IMG/VR virus record: IMGVR_UViG_3300030330_005471
Reading direction: 5' to 3' (one strand)
Origin: a virus
Taxonomy: Duplodnaviria; Caudoviricetes
Length of the DNA: 64,000 bases
The notes beneath the pieces were generated by a model that saw only the letters and a program-made list of their open reading frames with translations, ran no database searches and was not told the origin of the DNA. Positions 4,939-61,984 of the stretch are shown one piece after another. Both the position numbers and the translations under genes were made by a program. Positions within the stretch are counted from its first letter, which is position 1. Each line of letters begins with the position of its first letter.

Positions 4939-6765
4939 ATGTCTATAATTGAAAAATTGACAGAAGGCATCGTTAACCGTGATATGAAAGCGGAAGGTAG
5001 TGCACTTCTTAACAAGTGGTCCCAAACTGGACTTCTTGAGGGTCTTGAGACCCAACACGAGCAATCAACCATGGCTCGTCTTTTGGAAAACCAAGCAAAA
5101 GAACTTCTTCGTGAGGCTTCATCTATGGGAGCTGATAATGTTGACGGTTTTGCTGCTGTTGCTTTTCCTATCGTTCGTCGAGTATTCGCTGGACTTATTG
5201 CAAATGAACTTGTAAGCGTTCAACCAATGTCTTTGCCATCTGGTTTGATCTTCTTCCTTGACTTCACTTATGGTAGTGAACTTAACGGAGATCTTACATC
5301 TGCTAGTCGCTTTGGTAACACCATGGGTGGAACTAAGTCGATTTACGGTACAGATGATGTTGCATCACAAATCGCTGATGGTGTGAGCCTAGTTGGTGCT
5401 TCTTCAAAAGCAGGATTTGGTGGACCCGGACGTGATGGTTCTTTTGCCGGAGCTTACGCTTCTCCAACTGGAAGTAACAACACTGATATTGCTGCTGGTA
5501 TTACCGCTAAAGAAAGAACGTTTCTTTTAAATGGCAGTGTTTCTGAAGATGACGCTAAAAAAATCAAATATGATCCAGATCTTCTATCATTAACTGATGG
5601 AACAGGAGTTGTTGTATTGGACGTTCTTAAAGCTGAACATGATTCAACAGAGGGCGATCCAGATTATGATAATTTGGCAGCATTTATTCTAAACATCACT
5701 GGTGCTTCTGGGGATGACGTCTTTGCTGGTTTAAGTGGTACTTCTGCTTGTAACCAAATTCGTCGATTAACAGACACAATTCCTAGTGCTGATGCAATGG
5801 TTAATGGTGATGCGATTCGCTATGTTTATAGTGTCACTGCTGGTACCGTTGCGGCTTCTGCTGCTGGAACCAATATCACTAGTCTTATTCACAAAAGTCT
5901 GTCAGAATATCCTTTAAGGGAGAGTTTTACTGCATCTGGTACTCCCGTTGGAGCTATTGACGGATATGCATATCCTTTGGAAAACAATCCAAACATTCCA
6001 GAGATCGATATCAAGGTAGATAGTATCGCTATCACAGCACAAACCAAAAAGTTGAAAGCCAAGTGGACTCCTGAATTGGGACAAGACTTGAATGCTTATC
6101 ACAATTTGGATGCTGAGGTAGAGTTGACTTCTATCCTTTCTGAGCAAATTGCTCTTGAGATTGATCGTGAGATTCTTGCTGACCTTGTAAATGGTGCAAC
6201 TGCTGCAACATACTACTGGTCTCGTTCTCCCGGATTGTTTGTTAACAGAGAAACTGGTGCTGAACTTGGCGCAACTTCGGCTGCTCCTGACTTTACCGGA
6301 ACTGTTTCTGAGTGGTATGAGACTCTTATTGAAACCATCAATGATGTTTCCGCTCAAATCCATAGAAAGACACTTCGTGGCGGAGCTAACTATGTTGTAG
6401 TTTCTCCTGAAGTTGCTAATATCCTTGAGTTCACAAGCGGATTCCGTGCAAACGTAACTGCTGATGCTGACAAAGGTGATATCGGTGCTGTTAAGGCAGG
6501 AAGTCTTTCTCGTAAGTTTGATGTGATCGTTGATCCTTATTTCCCAAGAAATGCTATTCTTGTTGGACGTAAAGGAGCTTCTTTCCTTGAGTCTGGTTAT
6601 GTATATGCACCTTATGTGCCTCTACAAACTACACCTACAATCTTCGGACCAGAAGACTTTGTTCCTCGTAAAGGCGTAATGACTCGTTACGCTAAGAAGA
6701 TGGTACGTTCTGATATGTACGGTCTTGTTATCGTTCGAGGTCTTCTAGGTGAAGCTGGTGCATAA
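4939..6765 (+). CDS. gp23: Major capsid protein, T4 gp23 family
   Basis: VSVQPMSLPSGLIF, TKKLKAKWTPELGQDLNAYHNLDAEVEL, GYVYAPYVPL, GVMTRYA motifs. Confidence 0.97.
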   Translation: MSIIEKLTEGIVNRDMKAEGSALLNKWSQTGLLEGLETQHEQSTMARLLENQAKELLREASSMGADNVDGFAAVAFPIVRRVFAGLIANELVSVQPMSLPSGLIFFLDFTYGSELNGDLTSASRFGNTMGGTKSIYGTDDVASQIADGVSLVGASSKAGFGGPGRDGSFAGAYASPTGSNNTDIAAGITAKERTFLLNGSVSEDDAKKIKYDPDLLSLTDGTGVVVLDVLKAEHDSTEGDPDYDNLAAFILNITGASGDDVFAGLSGTSACNQIRRLTDTIPSADAMVNGDAIRYVYSVTAGTVAASAAGTNITSLIHKSLSEYPLRESFTASGTPVGAIDGYAYPLENNPNIPEIDIKVDSIAITAQTKKLKAKWTPELGQDLNAYHNLDAEVELTSILSEQIALEIDREILADLVNGATAATYYWSRSPGLFVNRETGAELGATSAAPDFTGTVSEWYETLIETINDVSAQIHRKTLRGGANYVVVSPEVANILEFTSGFRANVTADADKGDIGAVKAGSLSRKFDVIVDPYFPRNAILVGRKGASFLESGYVYAPYVPLQTTPTIFGPEDFVPRKGVMTRYAKKMVRSDMYGLVIVRGLLGEAGA

Positions 6766-6798
6766 TCACTAGCGATTTAAACCAAAGAACAAAAAAAT

Positions 6799-6827
6799 GC
6801 CCTCAACCTTTTGGTTGGGGGTTTTTT
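6799..6827 (+). terminator. Rho-independent terminator after capsid gene
   Basis: gccctcaacc-tttt-ggttggggg-tttttt. Confidence 0.85.
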
Positions 6828-6840
6828 CCTTTTGGAGAAA

Positions 6841-6848
6841 CTACTTAC
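6841..6848 (+). promoter_or_regulatory. Putative late promoter CTACTTAC
   Basis: Between terminator and next gene. Confidence 0.6.
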
Positions 6849-6897
6849 TATGAAACGAACCTTTATGGTTCTCAACTTTTATTAAGGAGATTATATT

Positions 6898-7347
6898 ATG
6901 GCTAAAGTTGGAAGAGCGGCTCGTGTCGCAAGTCGTCAGAGAGTTGAAATTCTTGGTGACGCTGATAAAACAATTCAATCTGCTGAGACAGGTGAGCTTT
7001 ACATTTTGACTAGTGACCTTACTGGTTTGCGTACTGTAACCTTACCAGCCCCACAAGATGGTGCTTATTTTAAGTTTATGGTTATGGCGCTCTTAGACGG
7101 TGCGTCACTAAAAATCAAAACTCATGATGCCGGTACTCACTTCATAGGTGGACTGCTACATCAAGATAGTGATAACACTACTGCTAATTTTGTTGAAGAG
7201 GATGGTAGTGGTAATGCTGATGAGATTTTAATTAAGCACGATAACGATGGTACGAAATTCGGTAGTTGGGTTGAGTGTGTATCTGACGGAACTAGTTGGT
7301 ATGTAACTGGTGTTATACATGCTGATGAGGCTCCAACAATTAGTTAA
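6898..7347 (+). CDS. Putative capsid decoration/structural protein
   Basis: Follows capsid gene; TVTLPAPQDGAYFKF...CVSDGTSWYV resembles the C-terminal domain of the fibre genes. Confidence 0.55.
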   Translation: MAKVGRAARVASRQRVEILGDADKTIQSAETGELYILTSDLTGLRTVTLPAPQDGAYFKFMVMALLDGASLKIKTHDAGTHFIGGLLHQDSDNTTANFVEEDGSGNADEILIKHDNDGTKFGSWVECVSDGTSWYVTGVIHADEAPTIS

Positions 7348-7357
7348 TAGGTGACCT

Positions 7358-7723
7358 ATGGGACGTAAAGCAAAAAGAGCTAAAGTACTCGTACGACAAA
7401 TGCGAATCACAGGACAAGAGATTGATCCTGTGGTTGCTCGTCGTTGCGGTGTAGAAAAACAAAACCAACAACTCATTGATGCTCGACTTGAAAAAGAAGC
7501 AGAAGAGCGTCGCTTAGCTGAAGAAGCCGAACGCAAAGAGCGTGAAGCATTGGAAGCAAAACAAAAAGCAGAAGCCGAGGCAAAACGTAAGGCTGAAGAA
7601 GCCAAGCGAAAAGCCGAAGAAGCAGCAAAGAAAAAAGCAGAAACCGCTCGTAAGAGAAAAGAGGCTGCTGCTAAAAAGAAAGCTGCTGCTAAGAAAAAAG
7701 TACAATCTCCTGAAGAAAACTAA
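7358..7723 (+). CDS. Lys/Ala/Glu-rich basic protein (histone H1/TolA-like composition)
   Basis: AEEAKRKAEEAAKKKAE...AAAKKKAAAKKK tail. Confidence 0.6.
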   Translation: MGRKAKRAKVLVRQMRITGQEIDPVVARRCGVEKQNQQLIDARLEKEAEERRLAEEAERKEREALEAKQKAEAEAKRKAEEAKRKAEEAAKKKAETARKRKEAAAKKKAAAKKKVQSPEEN

Positions 7724-36656: not shown

Positions 36657-36845
36657 ATGATGAAAGAAAAAATGGAAGCACTTATTGAGAATCTCCAAGC
36701 AGCCATCGCTGACTTAGAGAAAGTTGAAGAACATGCATATGGCTACAAATCAGCAGCTGTTAGAGTTCGTAAAGTAATGCATGAAGCAAGAGGTGAACTT
36801 CAAGAGTTGAGAAAAGAAGTTCAAACAAAGAAAAATTTGGGTTAA
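36657..36845 (+). CDS. Histone H1-like Hc1-family small protein
   Basis: DLEK..GYKSAAVRVRK..LQELRKEV resembles Hc1 GNKAAxxRxR motif. Confidence 0.6.
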   Translation: MMKEKMEALIENLQAAIADLEKVEEHAYGYKSAAVRVRKVMHEARGELQELRKEVQTKKNLG

Positions 36846-36847
36846 AC

Positions 36848-36876
36848 TTGACAAATACACTAAAGTGTGTTATAAT
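36848..36876 (+). promoter_or_regulatory. sigma70-like promoter
   Basis: TTGACA-17-TATAAT with TG. Confidence 0.85.
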
Positions 36877-36964
36877 ATATATATGCTGTCTTGTCTTGGG
36901 TACAAGATAGAGCCTGTGGCAACTCTTCTTTGCGTGACAGGCCGTTATTAAATTTGGAGGTATA

Positions 36965-37252
36965 ATGTTAAAAGATATATTTAATAGGCATGTTTGGATC
37001 GAACTGCTTGAAGAGGAAGAAAAGAAAGAAGATAAGGGCTTTTTATTGCCTGAAGGGTACGAAAAACCAAAGTCACCGTATGCAATAGGCAAAGTCTTAA
37101 TTTGTTCTGAGGATGGCAACCTGCATTTAAACACAGGAGACCTTATAGTTTTTCAAAGATCTATGCTTCAAGAGATGGAGATAAAGGGTGAGAAGATCTA
37201 TTTAATATTAGAAAACTACATCTTTGGGAGTATAGACAATGAAGTTAACTAG
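36965..37252 (+). CDS. groES: Co-chaperonin GroES-like
   Basis: 95 aa; mobile loop GFLLPE, GKVL, GDLIVF, EIKGEKIYLILENYIFG. Confidence 0.75.
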   Translation: MLKDIFNRHVWIELLEEEEKKEDKGFLLPEGYEKPKSPYAIGKVLICSEDGNLHLNTGDLIVFQRSMLQEMEIKGEKIYLILENYIFGSIDNEVN

Positions 37253-37916
37253 AGAATATTTAAAAAAACTGATCATGGAGCAAATGGGCCTACCTCCAGT
37301 AAATGAAGCACAAATGTCTCTTGGAGAAGCAAGAGCAGCCTTGGCATCACAGTTTGACGCTGGTGGCCCTTTTACAGTTGCGATGCTATCAGCTGAGAAC
37401 CCACCAAATCCGCCACCAGATTGGAACAACGAACAGATGATGAAAAATCTTGAAAATGACATGATTCAGAGAAATATGAATTACTACCTTATCGACGGTC
37501 AGTATTTTGGAACAGCAGAGAAATCTTATCTTGTTGTTAATTCACCAAAAGGTCAGATCATACATTTGGGCAAGAAATATCTTCAAGATTCTGTTATTTG
37601 GGGAGAAAAACAAAGAGCAATGGCCGACGAAGGTGCTGGTCCGAATATCTTTTTCCGTTTCTTCTTTATTCAATGCCACCCAGAAGAGGGACCAAAGTCT
37701 CCGAAGTATACTATTTCAGATGAAAAAGACGTTATCTTGAGTGACGAAAGTATCCAAGCAAGAGAGGATATGTTCTCAAGGATTGGTGGAGAAAAATTTG
37801 TTATTCCTTTCTTCACAGACCCAGAGATGGAATATAAAGCAAATGTCAGACCAGAAAAGATGGACACTATCGACGGTAGACAGGTTGGTGGAATATATGA
37901 GGTGAAAGGTGAGTGA
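37239..37916 (+). CDS. Head-protein-like leader fused to a DUF3293/SAM-lyase-like domain
   Basis: MKLTREYLKKLIMEQ leader; LSAENP..N..L..GQY...EKSYLV..LGKKYLQDSVI; CTATTTAA at 37198. Confidence 0.55.
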   Translation: MKLTREYLKKLIMEQMGLPPVNEAQMSLGEARAALASQFDAGGPFTVAMLSAENPPNPPPDWNNEQMMKNLENDMIQRNMNYYLIDGQYFGTAEKSYLVVNSPKGQIIHLGKKYLQDSVIWGEKQRAMADEGAGPNIFFRFFFIQCHPEEGPKSPKYTISDEKDVILSDESIQAREDMFSRIGGEKFVIPFFTDPEMEYKANVRPEKMDTIDGRQVGGIYEVKGE

Positions 37917-38655
37917 TCGATACAATCGAACATTATTTTTATATAATGATCAGATTGGTAGGGTTAGTTATGTTGACCATATGGGTTCTGACCTTACCAT
38001 CGTTAATAGTGCTAGGGTCAGCTTTGGTAATACAAAAGATGAACTTGATGATAGGGATAAACGATTGGTTAAATATCTCGTTAAGCACAAGCACACTTCA
38101 ACATTTGAGCACAACGTTGTTACTTTTAAATTTGTCGTGCCTCTCTTTATACGTTCTCAGCACCACCGACACCGTACGTGGTCTTATAACGAGATATCGA
38201 GAAGGTATACAGATAAGGGCATGGAATTCTATTTACCGAGAGTATTTAGAACCCAACATAAAAGCAACCGACAAGCATCAAACCCCGAAGACTTGATAGA
38301 CCCAAAGGCATGGCCAGAAGACAGTATTTTGGCAAAAAGCTCATTGACGATGTCCGATCTTTTACGCATCAGAACAAACGAGTGTCTTGGCACATATAAC
38401 GACATGATAGAGCGAGGAGTATGCCGAGAACAAGCAAGAATGGTTCTCCCTCAGAATCTATATACAGAATACTATGGAACTTGCAATCTTTCGAATCTAC
38501 TTAAATTTATAGACCTTCGCACCCATGAGGGTGCTCAGTGGGAGATTCAAAAAGTTGCAGAAGCATGTTTGGAAATTGCTAGCGACTTGTGGCCTGTGGC
38601 TGTTGAGTCGTATCGTGACATCAAACATGGAAGAATTTCAGAAAGCACCACCTAA
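37909..38655 (+). CDS. thyX: Flavin-dependent thymidylate synthase
   Basis: SARVS, HTSTFEH, QHHRHRTWSYNEISRRY, REQARMVLP, LRTHEGAQWEI. Confidence 0.96.
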   Translation: MSDRYNRTLFLYNDQIGRVSYVDHMGSDLTIVNSARVSFGNTKDELDDRDKRLVKYLVKHKHTSTFEHNVVTFKFVVPLFIRSQHHRHRTWSYNEISRRYTDKGMEFYLPRVFRTQHKSNRQASNPEDLIDPKAWPEDSILAKSSLTMSDLLRIRTNECLGTYNDMIERGVCREQARMVLPQNLYTEYYGTCNLSNLLKFIDLRTHEGAQWEIQKVAEACLEIASDLWPVAVESYRDIKHGRISESTT

Positions 38656-38908
38656 ATTTAAACTCGGAGACTTGGTTAAAATTCGAAACCTCGGTCTCTT
38701 ATTTGCTCAATATGAAGGTGCTCAAGCTGAATATGGCTTGATAAGTTGCGAAGCATATCATTATACAAAATCAAGCACCAAAGACTTACTTCTTTTTGGT
38801 TGGTGGACTTATGACGTTTTAATAGATGGACAACTAATTAAGATGATGCCAGAAACATTTTTAGAAGAGGTAAAAGTAGATGAAAATAAGGATACTGAGA
38901 GAGAGTAA
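38627..38908 (+). CDS. Small KOW/SH3-like hypothetical protein
   Basis: PKFKLGDLVKI..YGLI..YDVLI. Confidence 0.55.
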   Translation: MEEFQKAPPKFKLGDLVKIRNLGLLFAQYEGAQAEYGLISCEAYHYTKSSTKDLLLFGWWTYDVLIDGQLIKMMPETFLEEVKVDENKDTERE

Positions 38909-39944
38909 GGTACCTATAACAACAGGTCGATATCTTCAAACTCAAGCAAAACAAGCAGTTGGTGATTTCTCCCATGCACCAGAAGAAGTTCAAAGCTCTA
39001 GAATGGAAATAGCTATGAATATAGATAGATTTCTTCAAAGACCATTCGTCACAGTTGGGGACGAGTTTGAAGAGCCCGATGGTTCGGTAACAACCATCAG
39101 CAATCCAAAAGAAACGAATCTTCTTCTTTATGTATACAGAGGTGTTGATGAAGAAGGAAATTTACAACAAAAAGAAGACGTATCAGCAGTCAACAGAGAA
39201 CTTGATGAAAGAGTTAACCATTTTTTAATGTCATTAAGTCCGTTTGAAAAGAAAGTGTTGGCTTCGGATATAGATTTTATAATCAAAAGCATGGCTGACG
39301 AACGCTCCGAAGAACAAGAACAAACACACCAGTCAACACACATGTTAGCAAATGCTCCCGGACACTTTGATGATTACGTTTTTGCAACAAGAACCCGCTC
39401 AGTCTACAAAGACACCCGAGCCGGTAAAGATTTTATGCTCAAGAAGACACCCGAGCTGAAAAACATCCCAGAACAACACCACTTTTTATTCTCAATGGAA
39501 AACTTGATGGAAAGAGTAAAGCAAGGACTCAACCAACAACCAGATCCTGAGATTCCACCTCTAGATGATGTTGGGTATGATGCGAACTATCGTTTGGGCA
39601 CCAGAACGGAACAAATAGAGAAAGAGCAAAAACGCGAAGCTTCTGATTCTGATAAAGCTCTTGCCAAGACCGTTCAAAATTTGTTTATGATAACATACAC
39701 CAATCCTGCTTCTTGGGTATTGAAAATGAGCGATCAAGATCAGTTGGAGTTATTTGGTCCTTATTTCGAAGCCTTGCTATACAAGATAAAGGATAGACTA
39801 GACAACGCTGAGTATCCCAAAGAGTTTTTTGAACTCGAGAAGATAGCTGACAATGTTCCTTTGGTATTTTTTGACAAATACGAAGAAGCATTGGAATCAT
39901 ATATAGCTGGTATAGAAGCTTACGGATTCGAGCCGGAAGATTAG
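38880..39944 (+). CDS. Acidic hypothetical protein, candidate internal head protein
   Basis: MKIRILRES start; CTAATTAA at 38834. Confidence 0.5.
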   Translation: MKIRILRESKVPITTGRYLQTQAKQAVGDFSHAPEEVQSSRMEIAMNIDRFLQRPFVTVGDEFEEPDGSVTTISNPKETNLLLYVYRGVDEEGNLQQKEDVSAVNRELDERVNHFLMSLSPFEKKVLASDIDFIIKSMADERSEEQEQTHQSTHMLANAPGHFDDYVFATRTRSVYKDTRAGKDFMLKKTPELKNIPEQHHFLFSMENLMERVKQGLNQQPDPEIPPLDDVGYDANYRLGTRTEQIEKEQKREASDSDKALAKTVQNLFMITYTNPASWVLKMSDQDQLELFGPYFEALLYKIKDRLDNAEYPKEFFELEKIADNVPLVFFDKYEEALESYIAGIEAYGFEPED

Positions 39945-52846: not shown

Positions 52847-53365
52847 ATGACTATCATACACAATCATGGTGCTGCTGTGTCTGGCACTAAATCAGAAAAA
52901 GAATTACACAGGATAACCGAATCTGTTGGTTTTGCTTACTTAAAAGTTAAAGAAGACTTTGAAAAGCGAGGTTTGTCTGAGTGGGGTAGGAGATACCACA
53001 AGCCTCCAAAACTCTGGAACCAGAAAACAAAGAAAGGAAAGCAAAGAAAGTTTGTTTCTGATGGTTTCATACCGATAACAGAAGATGGAAGAGGAATTAT
53101 CATAGAACAAAAGCATTCCGATAAACATGGAACAACCGAAGAAAAAGTCTTCTATGACTTAAAGAAAATACAAAAAGGTGTTTATGGAAGTGAAAATGTT
53201 TTATGGTACGTATTCACCGGAGAAGCAGCGGGAGATATCGAGGTTTACAAAGAATTCTGCTTGGAAGCTGAGGCTCTTAACTTAGATGTTAGAATAATTT
53301 GGGGCTTCGACAATTATAAAAAACAACTACAAAAATTAAAGGAGAAAATCGATGGACAAGGATAA
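52847..53365 (+). CDS. PD-(D/E)XK restriction-like endonuclease
   Basis: SG..SE..FVSDGFI..IIIEQKHSDKHGTTEEK; adjacent to MTase. Confidence 0.7.
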   Translation: MTIIHNHGAAVSGTKSEKELHRITESVGFAYLKVKEDFEKRGLSEWGRRYHKPPKLWNQKTKKGKQRKFVSDGFIPITEDGRGIIIEQKHSDKHGTTEEKVFYDLKKIQKGVYGSENVLWYVFTGEAAGDIEVYKEFCLEAEALNLDVRIIWGFDNYKKQLQKLKEKIDGQG

Positions 53366-54497
53366 AAAAATAACAACCTATGGTATTCGTTACTTGGGAA
53401 GTAAAAACAAAATATTGCCACTAATCACACAGGTTATAAATGACTTGGACAAACAAGACATGAGAGTAATTGATGTGTTTACAGGCACGACAAGGGTCGC
53501 TCAGGCCCTTAAACAAGAAGGTTACGAGGTTATCACTAGTGACCTATCTTGGGCCTCTGAGGTGTACTCTGAGGCGTTTATATGCAATAATGGAGATGTA
53601 TCACATCTCGAGCAATACATCGATCAGCTTAACTTGGTTAAGCCAAAAGCTGACTGGTTGACGAAACACTATTGTAATGTTGCAGCACAAGCAGATCCTA
53701 GTGTCAATATTAAAGTGTGGACAAAGAAGAACGGAGAAAAGGCCGACGCAATAAGAGAGGAGATAGAGAGCATGGAAATAGAACCATGGGAAAAGTCTTA
53801 TCTAATAGCGTGTCTTATCTTTTCCCTAGATAAGTTAGACAACACCGTTGGTCTACAACAAGCTTATCTTAAGGGATGGAAGTCAGACAGAGTTCATAAA
53901 GACTTGGTTCTTTCTCCTCTGCCGGGTATTGAAGGATTGAAAGGAGAGCACATCTCCGGAGACGCCTTGAAGATAGCATATCCAAGTGCATCCGTTGCTT
54001 ATCTTGATCCACCATACACAGCAGCAGACTATTCAACGTATTATCATATTTGGGACAGTATTGCCCGTTGGGATAAACCGCAAGTAAGTCTCAAGACCAA
54101 CAGAAGAATCGACAGAGTAAAGCAAAAAACAAATGAAAAATGGGATAAAACTATGAAAAGTCCTTGGTATTCTAAGAAAACAGCTTTGAAGGCAACTAAA
54201 GAGCTCATAGACCGACTCCCAGTTAGATATTGCGTATTCTCTTATTCTGATGAAGGTCTTATCAAGTATGATGAAATGGAAGATTTATGCAGCAACTATG
54301 AAAGCTATGAGTTTCACCAACAAGAGCACGACAGACATGTTATGTCTCGTATTGGTGCTGGTGGTGACAAAGCAGAGAATGCAAAGAAGAAAAAGAATGT
54401 CGAGTATGTTATAGTAATCGACAAAGGTGAAGAAGTAGATATGGATGACGTAACTGCTGATTATACCGGTGAGATATACAAAGGAAAACATTTATAA
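53352..54497 (+). CDS. N6-adenine DNA methyltransferase (D12 class)
   Basis: RYLGSK, DVFTGT, YLDPPY. Confidence 0.9.
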   Translation: MDKDKKITTYGIRYLGSKNKILPLITQVINDLDKQDMRVIDVFTGTTRVAQALKQEGYEVITSDLSWASEVYSEAFICNNGDVSHLEQYIDQLNLVKPKADWLTKHYCNVAAQADPSVNIKVWTKKNGEKADAIREEIESMEIEPWEKSYLIACLIFSLDKLDNTVGLQQAYLKGWKSDRVHKDLVLSPLPGIEGLKGEHISGDALKIAYPSASVAYLDPPYTAADYSTYYHIWDSIARWDKPQVSLKTNRRIDRVKQKTNEKWDKTMKSPWYSKKTALKATKELIDRLPVRYCVFSYSDEGLIKYDEMEDLCSNYESYEFHQQEHDRHVMSRIGAGGDKAENAKKKKNVEYVIVIDKGEEVDMDDVTADYTGEIYKGKHL

Positions 54498-55811: not shown

Positions 55812-55869
55812 TACTTTTCTACTTTTAGCTTCTATTTATATTAGATTTAACATTAAGGAGATACAATCA

Positions 55870-56460
55870 ATGTCTAAAAAACTTTTATCAGAAGCCCAAG
55901 TTCGCCGTTTCCAAAGCTTGGCAAGTATCAAGCCCCTTCAAGAAATGGGTAGTTACGCTATGAAGCGTGACGAAAAAGAAAACAATGAAGGTTTATATCA
56001 AGAAGAAGTTGTTTCTGAGGAAGAAGAAAAGCCTATGGAAACAATGTATGAGGAAGAAGCCGAAGATGAACCAGCACCAGCACCAGAACCAGAAATGGAC
56101 ATGGCTGACGCTGATGGCGATGAAGTCGATATGACCTCTGATGATCTTTCAGCTGTGGCAGATGCTCTTGACACTCTTTCAAGCAAACTAGCACCCTTAT
56201 TGGACGCAGTTGACGCACCAGAAGGAGAAGACGAAGCTGCTGAAATGCCTGCTATGGAACCTTCAGCTGATGCTGGCGAAGAAGATGAAGAAGAACCAGC
56301 TGGTGCAATGGATGATATCCTTCAAGAAGCTCTTAAAGGTATTGAGTACGAACCATCTCAAGGCGAGATTGTTAAGGCTGTCGCTCTTCGTGTAGCTAAA
56401 AGACTACAAGAAGCAAAGAAAGCTCAAGCAAAATTAGATAAAGCGTTAGGAAGAAAGTAA
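55870..56460 (+). CDS. Highly acidic candidate internal head/core protein
   Basis: CTATTTAT at 55832; LLSE..RRFQSLASI..LQE N-terminus echoing scaffold RMKKLAGI. Confidence 0.6.
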   Translation: MSKKLLSEAQVRRFQSLASIKPLQEMGSYAMKRDEKENNEGLYQEEVVSEEEEKPMETMYEEEAEDEPAPAPEPEMDMADADGDEVDMTSDDLSAVADALDTLSSKLAPLLDAVDAPEGEDEAAEMPAMEPSADAGEEDEEEPAGAMDDILQEALKGIEYEPSQGEIVKAVALRVAKRLQEAKKAQAKLDKALGRK

Positions 56461-56462
56461 AA

Positions 56463-56765
56463 ATGAAAATTACCAACGAACAATTAAAGCAAATTATCAA
56501 AGAAGAGCTTGAAGGAGTTCTTGAAGAACAACCTATCAATGAATCAATCAGTAATTTTTATGATAAACTTTTCAGATTAATTTTTGATTTCAGAAGAACA
56601 GCTTTTACCAGTCACGAAGACATGGTAAATAAAGTAAATGGAGCCGTTAAAGAAATTTTACAAAAAATGGAATCAGCACCAAATATCGGTCAAAGCAAAG
56701 CTGATCAAGCAAATGCCGAAAGTAGTGTTGTAGTTGGTGATCCAATGATGGAAACAAAAAAATAA
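56463..56765 (+). CDS. Candidate internal head protein
   Basis: MKITNEQLKQIIKEELEGVLEEQPINES leader. Confidence 0.6.
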   Translation: MKITNEQLKQIIKEELEGVLEEQPINESISNFYDKLFRLIFDFRRTAFTSHEDMVNKVNGAVKEILQKMESAPNIGQSKADQANAESSVVVGDPMMETKK

Positions 56766-56836: not shown

Positions 56837-57226
56837 ATGGAAATACTACTTTATATCTGCATTTTCTTTTGTGGATGGGTATGTCACTCCTTATTCTCCT
56901 ACACAATGTCTCTCGGATATTCCGTAATGTTGCTTCGGAAAGTCTTGAGAGACATTGTGTATATGATAACAAAGATAGTAGAAACAGCCTATCTTGTTCA
57001 TGAGATGAAGATCTTACAACTTTACAAGTTGAATCTTTCAGATCGAGAAATAGAGAATCACATAAAACTTCATGAGATTCAAATGGGCAACATAAAAAGA
57101 GATATTGTAGTTTCAATTACGAGAAACTTTCCAAATGCTTTTAGCAACTTGATTGAGTTTAACGATTGGGACACAATGATGAAATGGATAGATAAAGAAC
57201 TAAAAATCAAAAAGGAGGCCAAATGA
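56837..57226 (+). CDS. Membrane-anchored hypothetical protein
   Basis: Hydrophobic N-terminus; GGAGG RBS. Confidence 0.6.
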   Translation: MEILLYICIFFCGWVCHSLFSYTMSLGYSVMLLRKVLRDIVYMITKIVETAYLVHEMKILQLYKLNLSDREIENHIKLHEIQMGNIKRDIVVSITRNFPNAFSNLIEFNDWDTMMKWIDKELKIKKEAK

Positions 57227-57930
57227 GATTTAGTAAACAATTCACAACACCAAAGAAAGATAAGAAGAAGAGAAGAGCAAAACCGGTGCCTATCAAAGAG
57301 GCCCAAGAAGAGGCCCAAGATGGGGCCCAAGAACCAACAGAAGAGGAAAGAGAAGCCGCAGCTGCGTTGATGGCCGCCCTCACAGGTGGAGGCGAACAGA
57401 AAGACCTTCGCTCCATACTAATGTATGGCGATGTCAACGAAGACCGAGCAGCAGAAGTAATAGTTGGTATTATCAGCCTTTCGGAACAAGATCTAAAAGA
57501 AGGACAGGAACGACTGGATGATATGAAAATATATGTATCAACTTATGGTGGTTCTGCCGATGATATGATGTCAATATATGATATTATGCGGCTTGCAAAA
57601 AGCAAGTGCGACATTGAAACAATCGGAATGGGAAAGGTTATGTCAGCAGGGACGCTTATCCTTGCAGCAGGAACCAAAGGAAAGAGAAAGATTATGAAGA
57701 ACTGTCGAGTTATGATCCATGCAGTATCTGCTGGATCTGTTGGAGCGATTCACAATCTTCAAAACGAGATGGAAGAGATACAAGCGATTCAAGATGCTTA
57801 TATCCGTTGTCTTGTTGAGGAGACCGACTTGACAAAGAGACAACTCAAGAAGTTGTTAGACCAAAAGGTTAACGTATACCTTACAGCTGAAGAGGCTGTT
57901 GAATACGGCTTAGCAGACGAGGTAATATAA
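57223..57930 (+). CDS. clpP: ClpP protease subunit
   Basis: STYGGS, IYDIM, VMSAG, GTKGKR, RVMIH, YLTAEEAVEYGLAD. Confidence 0.92.
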   Translation: MRFSKQFTTPKKDKKKRRAKPVPIKEAQEEAQDGAQEPTEEEREAAAALMAALTGGGEQKDLRSILMYGDVNEDRAAEVIVGIISLSEQDLKEGQERLDDMKIYVSTYGGSADDMMSIYDIMRLAKSKCDIETIGMGKVMSAGTLILAAGTKGKRKIMKNCRVMIHAVSAGSVGAIHNLQNEMEEIQAIQDAYIRCLVEETDLTKRQLKKLLDQKVNVYLTAEEAVEYGLADEVI

Positions 57931-58814: not shown

Positions 58815-60350
58815 ATGAAATTAGATGAAAAAGAAATAGAAAAACTTATTGAAGAGTTATTACAGGAGAGAAATGTTAAAATCAGAAATCCACAGAGCTC
58901 TGAGTCAGACGCGGATTATCTCCAAGCAATTTCTATTGGTCCCCAGTCAAAATCAAAGGCCCTAGATGCCGATCTTTCAAAAGCAAAAGGAAATGAACAA
59001 CCATTCGATAACGACGCAGAAATAAAGGCGGCTATTATCGCTCTCAGAGATCTTGTAGGAGAGCCAAATAATACTATTGATCTTGGCGATTTCGCCAGAG
59101 CCTCTGAGCTTGATGATGATGCACCAGCCAAAAAAATGGCACAATGGTTGAGTCAAAATGCTAATAGAGCCAAAGATCGATCAGAATATGGTGGCTATTT
59201 TCCTCAAGCGCGTGATTATGGAGACGAAGCAACTCAAGATTTGGCTAGTCCCGGTGATTCACCCAAGCAACAAGAGATAGACCCAGATAAACTTCCATTT
59301 TCAGATCCAAAAATATATAGTGCATCAGGTGGAGCTGGTCAATTTGGAGGAAAAATATTATCATCTTTTTCTTCTTTTTTCGAATCCATGGGGGCTGCTT
59401 CTTTGCAAGATAGAATCATAGCGATAAGTCAAGTTAGCAAAGCCATGATCAGTGAAGATACCACAGTCAAACTTAAAAATCTATTGCCAACCCACAGAGA
59501 ACAGCTTAATGCCGCTATATGTATGGATTATATGGCTGCACTGTTTAAAGAATTTGACCATGGAGCTGGGGCGTACTTTTTCGAAATGTTTGCCGGCATG
59601 ATAACCGGTGGCATTGTTTCTGGTAAGGGTATGAAAGGTGACGATTTTATAATGGTCAGCGATGGAGGCGATGCATTGGAAGGGAGCACTAAATTCTTTT
59701 CAGCCACCAAAGAAGCCGATCAAGCGTTAAGTGGCTTCACCGAAGGTGTAGAGGTCAATTACCTTTTTGCTTGGAAAAGAAGCGGAGGGGCAGTAGGTTC
59801 CGTTTCTTCAACAGCCGAACCAGATGAAATTTTAGAAATTGATCTTTATCAATTCTCTATCACAAAAAATAGCGACGGCTCAGTCACAGCCTCTGGCGAT
59901 GTTAGTGCCAGCGTAACTGGTGGACAAAACCCAAAAGTTCTGTTTGATATGAAATCTAGTTCAGGAGTGCCGGTCACAACAACTCTTTACCTTGCAAATG
60001 TATCAGGGAGACAAGGTTTCAAAACAGCACTTGAAAGTGGACTAAAGAAAGAAGAAAAGGGTTTACAAGATGCATATGAACATTTTAAGAAATATATTGA
60101 AAATATGCAATTATCATCCCAACTTACAAAGTCTTACATAGCCGATGGGAGGACCACAGATGCAACAGAAAGCATTAGCAAACTAAAACTGGCTGATACT
60201 AGTTTAAAAAACCTTTATAAAAGTGGAGATTCAAAAGCAGAAGGCTTCGGCAGAAAAGTATCAAGAGGAAAAGTCTCCGAATCCAAATTCGAATCCCTTG
60301 ATAAACTGATAGCCGAAACAATGCGAGACATAAGAAAAAAACGAAAATAA
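58815..60350 (+). CDS. Candidate internal head protein with possible nuclease-fold core
   Basis: CTAATTAA at 58783; MKLDEKEIEKLIEELLQE leader; GAYFFE..GG..DD..STK. Confidence 0.5.
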   Translation: MKLDEKEIEKLIEELLQERNVKIRNPQSSESDADYLQAISIGPQSKSKALDADLSKAKGNEQPFDNDAEIKAAIIALRDLVGEPNNTIDLGDFARASELDDDAPAKKMAQWLSQNANRAKDRSEYGGYFPQARDYGDEATQDLASPGDSPKQQEIDPDKLPFSDPKIYSASGGAGQFGGKILSSFSSFFESMGAASLQDRIIAISQVSKAMISEDTTVKLKNLLPTHREQLNAAICMDYMAALFKEFDHGAGAYFFEMFAGMITGGIVSGKGMKGDDFIMVSDGGDALEGSTKFFSATKEADQALSGFTEGVEVNYLFAWKRSGGAVGSVSSTAEPDEILEIDLYQFSITKNSDGSVTASGDVSASVTGGQNPKVLFDMKSSSGVPVTTTLYLANVSGRQGFKTALESGLKKEEKGLQDAYEHFKKYIENMQLSSQLTKSYIADGRTTDATESISKLKLADTSLKNLYKSGDSKAEGFGRKVSRGKVSESKFESLDKLIAETMRDIRKKRK

Positions 60351-60412: not shown

Positions 60413-61984
60413 ATGAACAAAACTTATTCAAACGGTAGTGCTTTGTCCGAAGCTCTACTAAGAGGTATCGACACTCTTGCTGATAATGTAGCAAGTACTC
60501 TCGGGCCAAAAGGACGCAATGTGATTCTATATCACAAAGAACAGAACACTCCTGTCGTAACGAAAGACGGAGTAACCATCGCCAAGTTTGTTGAACTTGA
60601 TGACCCTGTTGAGCACGTTGGTGCACAGATTGTAAAGCAAGCAGCCGAACAGTCAGCCAATACAGCAGGTGATGGAACAACGACAACCACCGTTCTCGCT
60701 AGAGCCATGATCAAAGAAGCCCAGAAGTATATTGTGAGCGGTGTTTCTCCAATTGAAATAAAGAGAGGAATGGATCAAGCTTGTGAACAGATCGTTGAAA
60801 CACTCAAAGAGTCTGCGAGGCAAATAAGATCCGAAGAAGACATCAGAGATATTGCAACTATATCAGCAAACAACGATAAGTCCATTGGGACACTTGTGTC
60901 CACAGCTGTTGATAAAGCCGGAAAAGATGGCTCTGTGCTTATTGAAGAGGCTAGGTCTATGCGAACCACCTTGGAACTCATAGAAGGCTTTAGAATGGAC
61001 ACTGGGTACCTTGCAAGCTCATTTATAACCAATGAGAGAACAGGTACTGTAGAATATGATAATCCACTTATCTTGGTTACAGATGATAAGGTGGAACATG
61101 TAGAACAAATTTATCCAACTTTGGAATTAGCAGCAAGAGAATCCCGTCCTCTTGTTTTGGTGGCCTCCGAAGTGGAGGGTCAAGCTCTTGCTGCCCTTAT
61201 TATGAATAGCGTTAGAGGTACGATGAAAGTCTGTGCCGTTAAAGCACCCAGATATGGCGAGGAACGGAGAAAGATTCTTCGTGACCTCTGCCTGTCTGTT
61301 GGAGCCACTTTTATAACTAGGGAAGACGGGCTGCAACTAAAGGACATTCAACTCGGTCACTTTGGTCAGTCAAAGTCTATCTCCGTAGGAAAACTATGGA
61401 CAACTATCGTTGGAGGTAAAGGAGACTATGATGGTATTGATAAACAAATAGGTGCTCTCAAGGTCGAAATTTCTCAAACTGATAATATAAAAGAGTGTGA
61501 GCGTATCCAAGAAAGGATTACAAGACTCGCATCAGGAGTTGCAGTTATTAGAGTCGGTGCACCCACCGAGGTCGAAATGATTGAGAAGAAACATCGCATT
61601 GAAGATGCTCTCGAAGCAGTAAGATCTGCTCAAGAAATGGGGGTGATCGCCGGTGGTGGATCTTCGCTTGTAAGGATGTCTGAGGCAGTAACAGTCGTCT
61701 CTAAAGAGAAAGGTGCTATGTTAGGCTTCCAAATAGTTTTGGACGCTTGTGAGGCTCCTCTGCGGCAAATGTGTTTAAATGCAGGGGAGTCACCGGACAT
61801 TATCGTAAACAAAGTTAAAAGTTCAAGCAGAAACAATGGATACAACTTCATGACCGGAGAGATAGAAGATTTCTTTGAAACAGGTGTTATTGACCCTGTA
61901 AAAGTTACCATTTCGGCTCTTGAAAACGCCACATCTGTCGCATCAACACTAATTACAACAAATCATGCAATAGTCAAAACATAG
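60413..61984 (+). CDS. groEL: Chaperonin GroEL
   Basis: TLGPKGRNV, TKDGVTIA, AGDGTTT, VKAPRYG, ERITRLASGVAVIRVG, GVIDPVKV; lacks GGM tail. Confidence 0.97.
   Translation: MNKTYSNGSALSEALLRGIDTLADNVASTLGPKGRNVILYHKEQNTPVVTKDGVTIAKFVELDDPVEHVGAQIVKQAAEQSANTAGDGTTTTTVLARAMIKEAQKYIVSGVSPIEIKRGMDQACEQIVETLKESARQIRSEEDIRDIATISANNDKSIGTLVSTAVDKAGKDGSVLIEEARSMRTTLELIEGFRMDTGYLASSFITNERTGTVEYDNPLILVTDDKVEHVEQIYPTLELAARESRPLVLVASEVEGQALAALIMNSVRGTMKVCAVKAPRYGEERRKILRDLCLSVGATFITREDGLQLKDIQLGHFGQSKSISVGKLWTTIVGGKGDYDGIDKQIGALKVEISQTDNIKECERIQERITRLASGVAVIRVGAPTEVEMIEKKHRIEDALEAVRSAQEMGVIAGGGSSLVRMSEAVTVVSKEKGAMLGFQIVLDACEAPLRQMCLNAGESPDIIVNKVKSSSRNNGYNFMTGEIEDFFETGVIDPVKVTISALENATSVASTLITTNHAIVKT

Follow-up and report, generated by a model that had tools for sequence, protein, structure and literature searches.

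A predicted T3-type S-adenosylmethionine lyase with a candidate capsid-targeting leader in an uncultured marine giant phage

A gene in IMGVR_UViG_3300030330_005471, a 64,000-nucleotide stretch of DNA (hereafter, the window), raises the question of whether a phage can bring an enzyme that degrades S-adenosylmethionine (SAM) into its host together with its DNA. The source of the window is an uncultured marine giant phage, a large T4-type myovirus. The gene is the open reading frame (ORF) at 37239-37916 (+ strand), which is real and conserved, and its 225-residue product is a leader-tagged member of the SAM-lyase family. The N-terminus and internal motifs quoted for the gene in an original prediction are all present in this ORF. 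We propose that the gene encodes a T3-type SAM lyase behind a removable N-terminal tag, i.e. an enzyme that would cleave SAM, be packaged, trimmed and injected, and be expressed both early and late. We give this reading, taken as a whole, a probability of about 0.55. SAM lyases, T4 capsid targeting and a virion-associated SAM hydrolase (in the cyanophage S-CREM2) are already known; what is described here is a new, divergent member. The features within and immediately before the ORF are:

37226-37230, + strand: ribosome-binding site GGGAG, 8 nucleotides before the ATG, invariant in relatives
37239-37307, + strand: leader (codons 1-23), in which an amphipathic helix at residues 5-16 is followed by a disordered linker with V21-N22-E23 at its end, and with a predicted cut between E23 and A24
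37344-37826, + strand: T3-type SAM lyase fold (codons 36-196), predicted by VIA and Foldseek on the AlphaFold model
37497-37520, + strand: G87-Q-Y89 and E94, equivalent to G56, Y58 and the essential E69 of Svi3-3, and to G55, Y57 and E68 of T3
37584-37592, + strand: Q116-D117-S118, equivalent to Q104-E105-S106 of Svi3-3 and Q94-D95 of T3

Is the protein a SAM lyase? It was modelled with AlphaFold on a 113-sequence alignment, with a predicted local distance difference test score (pLDDT) of 87.4. Against the Protein Data Bank (PDB), Foldseek placed the T3 SAM lyase 8bb1_E first (E 7.4e-4, template modelling (TM) score 0.66), and the top six matches were all SAM lyases. VIA-align, run on 48,161 chains, put the T3 SAMase 7ock_L on top with Z 13.3 and a root-mean-square deviation of 3.0 Å over 136 of 152 residues (7ock_L residues 2-153), the runners-up being Svi3-3 (Z 5.7) and unrelated folds (Z 5.6 or less), while the SAM-AMP lyase 9gab_D matched at Z 4.3. 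An earlier, poorer model ranked the same proteins first. The original prediction had proposed a SAM-lyase/DUF3293 fold, to be checked with AlphaFold and Foldseek, and in the model this holds up: the T3 SAM lyase comes first with both Foldseek and VIA, and the key residues align.

T3 gp0.3 SAMase (PDB 7OCK, 8BB1; Pfam family PF23780) is the closest match in structure, taken over the full T3 chain, and the elements V-S-A, N, G-x-Y, E and Q-D follow one another in the same order in both proteins; the motif order that had been quoted for T3 gp0.3 proved correct when the T3 protein was translated. The setting of T3 gp0.3 in phage counter-defence is also plausible for the window protein. The two differ in that their sequence identity is only about 12%, and the window protein has a shorter loop before the catalytic Glu and adds an N-terminal leader and helix as well as a 30-residue C-terminal tail. 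The genomes differ too: T3 SAMase is encoded by the first gene in a T7-like podovirus, whereas the window gene lies in a jumbo T4-type myovirus. Svi3-3 (PDB 6ZM9) and the CorA-associated SAM-AMP lyase (PDB 9GAB) have the PII-like ferredoxin fold of the window protein and, as in that protein, a catalytic Glu that follows the T-loop and a B-loop Gln, but are far weaker structural matches, and the window protein has extra C-terminal strands of the T3 type. By predicted fold and conserved residues, the core of the protein is a T3-type SAM lyase.

SAM lyases of this family are homo-oligomers with the active site between subunits. Profile alignment to the T3-family alignment pairs G87-Q-Y89 with T3 G55-C-Y57, and in three separate comparisons E94 pairs with T3 E68 and Q116-D117 with T3 Q94-D95. 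Only Gly56, Glu69 and Gln104 (Svi3-3 numbering) are strictly conserved among active SAM lyases according to Guo et al. 2021 (PMC7877911); Tyr58 and Glu105 of Svi3-3 complete the SAM-binding site, and E69 mutants are nearly dead (PMC7877911). Across 158 relatives of the window protein these residues are almost always retained: the Gly in 154/157, Tyr or Phe at the next position of interest in 155/157, the Glu in 156/157 and the Gln in 158/158.

Family membership was approached from the relatives. The window protein has 35 close metagenomic homologues, a profile of which reached 2,787 representative clusters at E ≤ 1e-3. Homologues at 81% identity or less to the window protein exceed the Pfam threshold of DUF3293 (PF11697; 25 bits) with scores of 26.1-90.7 bits, and relatives found by the family profile reach PF23780 S-AdoMet_lyase (threshold 28 bits) at 29.6-35.4 bits on the same stretch as DUF3293. 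In the ESM Atlas, both DUF3293 and S-AdoMet_lyase are represented in the clusters around the model, which are 100% viral. Since relatives hit PF23780 on the DUF3293 stretch and the Atlas clusters carry both families, DUF3293 corresponds to the N-terminal half of the SAM-lyase domain. Membership of the window protein itself in PF23780 is transitive rather than direct, because only its relatives and S-CREM2 gp6 score. Searches with the window protein gave no match by phmmer and profile search of solved structures, in PHROGs, or by tblastn against 50,697 phage records; relatives in cultured phages surfaced only when more typical family members served as queries. A protein 100% identical to it is in UniProt under A0A516M7B3, where it carries no protein name. 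Elsewhere in the family, P0116, P0151, P0164 and P0207 have two to four tandem DUF3293/SAM-lyase domains per polypeptide of 590-950 residues, and P0190 combines a DUF3293/SAM-lyase domain with an HC2 histone-like region.

The second part of the question is whether the enzyme travels in the head. This concerns the leader and the following features (a slash marks a cut):

4939-6765, + strand: gp23-like capsid protein gene (Pfam Gp23, E 1.3e-74)
5107-5118, + strand: L57-R-E59/A60 in the gp23-like capsid protein, a predicted maturation cut at the position of T4 gp23 L-T-E65/A66
56463-56765, + strand: 100-residue ORF with the same leader type, ending P-I-N-E/S, in the head-protease cluster
57223-57930, + strand: ClpP-family protease (PHROG head maturation protease, E 2e-25; Pfam CLP_protease, E 1.5e-35)
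58815-60350, + strand: 511-residue ORF with a related leader, CTAATTA 32 nucleotides upstream

Searched in six frames for the leader pattern, the window has MK[LI]..-type leaders at the starts of just three ORFs, 37239, 56463 and 58815, in agreement with the claim that the gene shares its leader type with the latter two. The leaders at 37239 and 56463 both finish P-[VI]-N-E-[AS]. The 511-residue ORF at 58815 has no family match, and its tblastn against phages gave no match either. In the AlphaFold model, residues 18-23 are the sole segment with a pLDDT below 50 and lie between the leader helix and a second helix that leads into the domain. Glu23 is invariant among close homologues. In the wider family a Glu stands at the cut position in 143 of 158 proteins, preceded two residues earlier by L, I or V in 116 of the 143 and followed mostly by S, E, A or G; the segment before it is 6 to 125 residues long, with a median of 23. 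Counted over 152 aligned relatives, E23 is retained in 143, and L, I or V stands two positions earlier in 120. Many of the family leaders resemble the T4 tag, as in MKRFEQYITE/A and MKSFKQFVVE/S compared with MKTYQEFIAE/A of T4 IPII/IPIII. A cut after Glu14 (I-M-E/Q) was considered and rejected, Glu14 not being conserved in relatives whereas Glu23 is.

The capsid protein of the window phage has a propeptide homologous to that of T4 gp23, as judged by sequence and alignment. T4 gp23 itself is cut at L-T-E65/A66, the residue count having been checked on the T4 sequence. The internal proteins IPI-III and Alt of T4, the tag of which is cut by gp21, resemble the system described here in that an N-terminal tag ending hydrophobic-x-Glu, followed by Ala or Ser, is found on unrelated proteins, and in that the window phage has a gp23-like capsid protein with a homologous cut site. 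The T4 protein IPI* is an injected anti-restriction protein. The two systems differ in the length of the tag (23 residues in the window, 10 in T4), in the protease (a ClpP-like protease is present in the window and no gp21 homologue was found there) and in the cargo, which is a predicted metabolite-degrading enzyme in the window phage and an inhibitor protein or an ADP-ribosyltransferase in T4.

Two further ORFs of the window begin with short sequences of this kind. The ORF at 38880-39944 (354 residues, no Pfam or PHROG family) starts MKIRILRE/S, a short T4-like tag, and has CTAATTA 46 nucleotides upstream, within the preceding coding sequence; it may be a further cargo gene inside the early region. 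The ORF in 55832-56460 probably has its real start at ATG 55871, with CTATTTA 39 nucleotides upstream. Its product is very acidic, begins MSKKLLSE/A, ends in a basic helix and is prohead core/scaffold-like; the leader ORF at 56463 directly follows.

A homologue is known from virions. According to a report published in 2023 on the T4-like cyanophage S-CREM2 (PMC10665884), mass spectrometry identified ORF6, a "SAM hydrolase", among six non-structural virion proteins, with values of 19 and 26.3 in Table 3, read here as peptides and percent coverage, and the authors proposed that the ORF6 product enters the host with the DNA. S-CREM2 gp6 (OR473000) is a PF23780 member (E 2.3e-19, 70.1 bits), matches the present family in hhalign at 95.8% (E 7e-9, 32% identity, 100 columns from its L-E-E/S site) and matches the window protein in BLASTP at E 1e-4. 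Both proteins have the Glu site, the G-Q-Y, E-K-S-Y and L-G-K-K-Y-x-Q-D-S-V motifs and an N-terminal leader before the lyase domain, and both come from T4-type myoviruses with a Dam methylase nearby. Unlike the window protein, gp6 is 414 residues long, with a long basic C-terminal extension and a short T4-like leader, MKDFDSFLEE, and reaches PF23780 directly; gp6 was measured in virions, where the window protein is predicted to be. The starts of four S-CREM2 virion proteins, gp6 MKDFDSFLEE, gp13 MKDLHSFLTE, gp14 VKRFDAFLTEE and gp15 MNFSEFNE/S (L013, 2500-14000), resemble the T4 tag MKTYQEFIAE, a likeness that the passages of PMC10665884 read here do not mention; the gp6 leader also resembles those of gp13 and gp14.

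The domain also turns up in other proteins. It occurs at about residue 1,320 of a 3,694-residue "structural protein" of Flavobacterium podophages (including Flavobacterium phage elemo), in a 559-residue protein that adjoins the tail sheath gene of Myxococcus phage Mx1, and in proteins annotated as ART-PolyVal-like or polyvalent-associated. Iyer et al. 2017 (PMC5512222), who make no mention of a DUF3293/SAM-lyase domain, regard polyvalent proteins as being delivered along with the DNA when infection begins. These giant and polyvalent proteins contain the same DUF3293/SAM-lyase-like domain as the window protein, but as one module, while in the window phage it forms a stand-alone protein with its own leader. 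In the locus L009, on a contig of another phage, a homologue (6726-7430) has ThyX on one side and, directly after it, an ArdA anti-restriction gene; a Dam methylase follows at a distance of 5 kb. The idea that the protein is a head cargo trimmed at an x-x-Glu site thus finds support in the conserved leader and site, the low-confidence linker, the L-R-E/A site of the capsid protein and the presence of S-CREM2 gp6 in virions; the protein is probably packaged into the capsid and injected with the DNA.

When would the gene be expressed? Its surroundings are:

36848-36876, + strand: sigma70-type promoter TTGACA-17-TATAAT, with TG, a 12/12 match ahead of the GroES-like gene, heading the SAM-lyase operon
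36965-37252, + strand: GroES-like co-chaperonin gene (Pfam Cpn10, E 3.5e-5; PHROG co-chaperonin GroES), the 3' end of which holds the CTATTTA element
37198-37205, + strand: CTATTTAA, of the CTAnTTA class, a candidate phage-specific (late) promoter 41 nucleotides before the SAM-lyase ATG, inside the GroES-like coding sequence
37909-38655, + strand: ThyX thymidylate synthase gene (Pfam Thy1, E 1.6e-48)

The start of the SAM-lyase ORF overlaps the end of the GroES-like gene by 14 nucleotides, and its stop overlaps the GTG start of the ThyX gene by 8. An equivalent sigma70 promoter is found in three diverged relatives (L002, L004, L006), no terminator-like site was found between the promoter and 39985, and the order ribonucleotide reductase, Hc1-like, GroES-like, SAM lyase, ThyX is maintained in loci L002-L006. 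Because of this conserved promoter, the absence of a terminator and the conserved gene order, the gene is very probably transcribed early with its neighbours. In the roughly 90 nucleotides between the promoter and the GroES-like start (36848-36964) there is a block conserved across lineages (GCAACT-TTCTTTGCGTGA-like) together with inverted repeats, and a palindrome, CCGTTAT...ATAACGG, that extends over the -10 box is present upstream of the GroES-like gene in L004 and L006; the block or palindrome may serve as an operator or fold as a leader RNA structure.

The original prediction had given the gene a motif of its own at 37198 and a late timing. CTATTTAA is indeed present there, its CTAnTTA class is enriched and this copy is conserved, but the exact 8-mer is not enriched in the window, with 2 copies against 4.0 expected. 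CTAnTTA itself occurs 34 times on the + strand and 5 times on the - strand; 19 of the 34 + strand sites lie 10-60 nucleotides upstream of a called start (binomial p about 1e-15), where control motifs of the same composition have 1.75 sites on average and never more than 6, and 10 of 14 genes of the structural block have one upstream. The copy at 37198 is unchanged across three lineages with SAM-lyase proteins of just 35-75% identity. When the amino acids of the GroES-like gene with degenerate codons that are common to all four sequences were compared, identical codons were used at 9/10 positions from the motif onward and at 3/22 before it (Fisher p 7e-5). In L009, where the upstream gene is ThyX instead of GroES, the 8-mer CTATTTAA stands 24 nucleotides before the ATG of the homologue. 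As a candidate promoter, the CTATTTA element at 37198 would add late transcription of the SAM-lyase gene. Late synthesis is what this element suggests, but the sigma70 operon makes early synthesis probable as well: rather than only late, the protein is very probably made early and probably also late. An assignment of CTAnTTA to the Bacteroidota -7 promoter element was rejected in our judgement, as the pattern differs and the early promoters of the window are classical TTGACA/TATAAT.

The genes of the window lie on the + strand. Genes for a class II ribonucleotide reductase and a small Hc1-like protein are found 5' of the GroES-like gene; between the reductase and the promoter there is a 62-residue ORF (36657-36845), for which the relatives have counterparts of the histone-like Hc1 family (PF07432). 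The phage carries both GroES-like (36965-37252) and GroEL-like (60413-61984) chaperonins, 23 kb apart in separate transcription units. The gp23-like capsid protein, whose closest relatives in cultured phages are those of Flavobacterium myophage immuto, Microcystis phage Mel-JY01 and Rhodothermus phage RM378, is 608 residues long; Pfam Gp23 matches it in two separate parts, and roughly 200 residues are inserted after the propeptide region. Other features of the window are:

from 10495, + strand: tail sheath gene (window annotation)
from 49206, + strand: DnaE-type polymerase gene (window annotation)
53352-54497, + strand: SAM-dependent D12-class N6-adenine DNA methyltransferase (Pfam MethyltransfD12, E 2.9e-28)
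from 57931, + strand: amidase gene (window annotation)
60413-61984, + strand: GroEL gene (window annotation)

Several observations weigh against the proposed packaged and injected enzyme. Concerning packaging, the gene is the second cistron of the conserved sigma70 operon (GroES-like, SAM lyase, ThyX), and early cytoplasmic expression from that operon alone could account for its presence. The conservation of Glu23 and the following helix could be structural rather than that of a cut site, and the constraint on synonymous sites near CTATTTA could reflect translation initiation and not a promoter. No homologue of T4 gp21 was found in the 64-kb window (tblastn, best E 0.63), and the ClpP-like protease at 57223 is the only candidate head-maturation protease there. 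Concerning the enzyme, the window protein scores 18.8 bits against DUF3293 (E 0.0026, residues 52-119), below the threshold, and has no PF23780 match at E ≤ 1. Compared profile to profile with the T3 family, it scores weakly (E 0.004-0.007), with an identical register in all three comparisons; the loop from Y89 to E94 is shorter, by about six residues, than that of T3 and Svi3-3; and the phage retains SAM-dependent methyltransferases. The points on packaging bear on an alternative in which the product is a cytoplasmic SAM lyase of the usual kind, made early as in T3 and never packaged, with an N-terminal helix used for folding, oligomerisation or partner binding and a conserved Glu and following helix that are simply part of the domain. 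The perfect and conserved sigma70 promoter, the lack of a terminator, the cistrons overlapping the GroES-like and ThyX genes, the synteny of the nucleotide-metabolism block maintained in relatives and the absence of a gp21-type protease from the window by tblastn all agree with it, and T3 SAMase is the first gene expressed, as stated in the abstract of PMC8406200. We nevertheless regard it as unlikely: the homologue S-CREM2 gp6 is in virions, the leader is common to two unrelated ORFs in the head-protease cluster, the leaders of the family differ in length and sequence yet retain the hydrophobic-x-Glu site, the domain is found inside giant structural and polyvalent proteins, and the internal CTATTTA element is constrained at the nucleotide level.

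The points on the enzyme bear on what it would cleave. SAM-AMP lyases, which are CorA-associated in type III CRISPR and also include AcrIIIB4 candidates, are marked by an enlarged pocket that takes the AMP moiety and by a T-loop in a different position. SAM-AMP lyases and SAM lyases have in common just the catalytic Glu and the B-loop Gln, and a phage-encoded SAM-AMP lyase leaves SAM uncut (PMC12255297). Since the Glu and Gln of both enzyme types are present in the window protein, its specificity for SAM or SAM-AMP cannot be read from its sequence, and because the loop before E94 is shorter, substrate specificity may differ. Dam-type methylases coexist with homologues of the protein in three phages, i.e. 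the window phage (D12), L009 and S-CREM2, which points either to a small, early-acting dose or to another substrate. The same fold and chemistry could serve against SAM-AMP, the type III CRISPR signal, as an injected or early anti-CRISPR, or against another sulfonium metabolite, and would then spare the phage's own methyltransferases. We find this improbable, as the model is far closer to T3 SAMase (Z 13.3) than to the SAM-AMP lyase 9gab (Z 4.3), the G-x-Y motif, which packs on the ribose and sulfonium in Svi3-3 (PMC7877911), is retained, and the ArdA neighbour in L009 points toward restriction rather than CRISPR. The caution that the original prediction drew from the methyltransferase at 53352 loses weight, because S-CREM2 and L009, too, combine a homologue with a Dam-type methylase. 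T4 internal head proteins are mostly non-enzymatic, which counts for a protein that has kept the SAM-lyase fold but is catalytically dead and mainly structural in the head, where it may bind DNA or the host SAM synthetase (MetK). T3 SAMase, too, binds and inhibits MetK independently of catalysis, according to bioRxiv 10.1101/2023.02.27.530186 and PMC8406200. Near-invariance of the SAM-binding and catalytic residues in 158 diverged relatives would be unexpected for a dead enzyme, and we consider this explanation very improbable.

On the reading that we prefer, that of a tagged SAM lyase carried in the head, infection would proceed as follows. The leader would act like the T4 capsid targeting sequence and bring the protein into the prohead core, where the head protease would cut it off behind Glu23; this cut and the predicted L-R-E/A cut in the capsid protein would follow one hydrophobic-x-Glu rule. 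The trimmed enzyme would leave the head with the DNA and lower SAM around the entering genome, cleaving it to methylthioadenosine and homoserine lactone by a unimolecular lyase mechanism. SAM-dependent type I/III restriction and bacteriophage exclusion (BREX) would be blunted before any phage gene is read. The early sigma70 operon would then yield further copies, and the internal CTATTTA element late copies for packaging. A possible explanation of how the phage is able to keep its own Dam-type methylase is that the injected dose is small and early-acting.

No paper in the literature searched mentions DUF3293. That DUF3293 equals the SAM-lyase fold, that the family is very large and purely viral, and that the tag and Glu site are near-universal in it appear to be undescribed. 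The present analysis assigns a predicted function to this unannotated Pfam family and links it to the published virion-associated SAM hydrolase S-CREM2 gp6. More tentatively, and with somewhat less than even confidence, we suggest that DUF3293 is a very large, essentially viral family of SAM lyases, comprising 2,787 or more clusters at 50% identity, whose members are as a rule loaded into virions, either on their own with a cleavable tag of the T4 capsid-targeting type or as modules of giant injected proteins of the structural or polyvalent kind. T3 can rely on its SAMase because T3 DNA enters slowly and the SAMase gene is the first to be expressed. This route is closed to myoviruses, as they deliver the whole genome at once; a head-carried SAM lyase would act on SAM-dependent type I/III restriction and BREX ahead of transcription. 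If DUF3293 proteins are as a rule carried in virions, pre-emptive, protein-borne depletion of SAM at DNA entry would serve marine and other phages widely as a counter-defence, at a dose that leaves their own Dam-type methylases able to work later.

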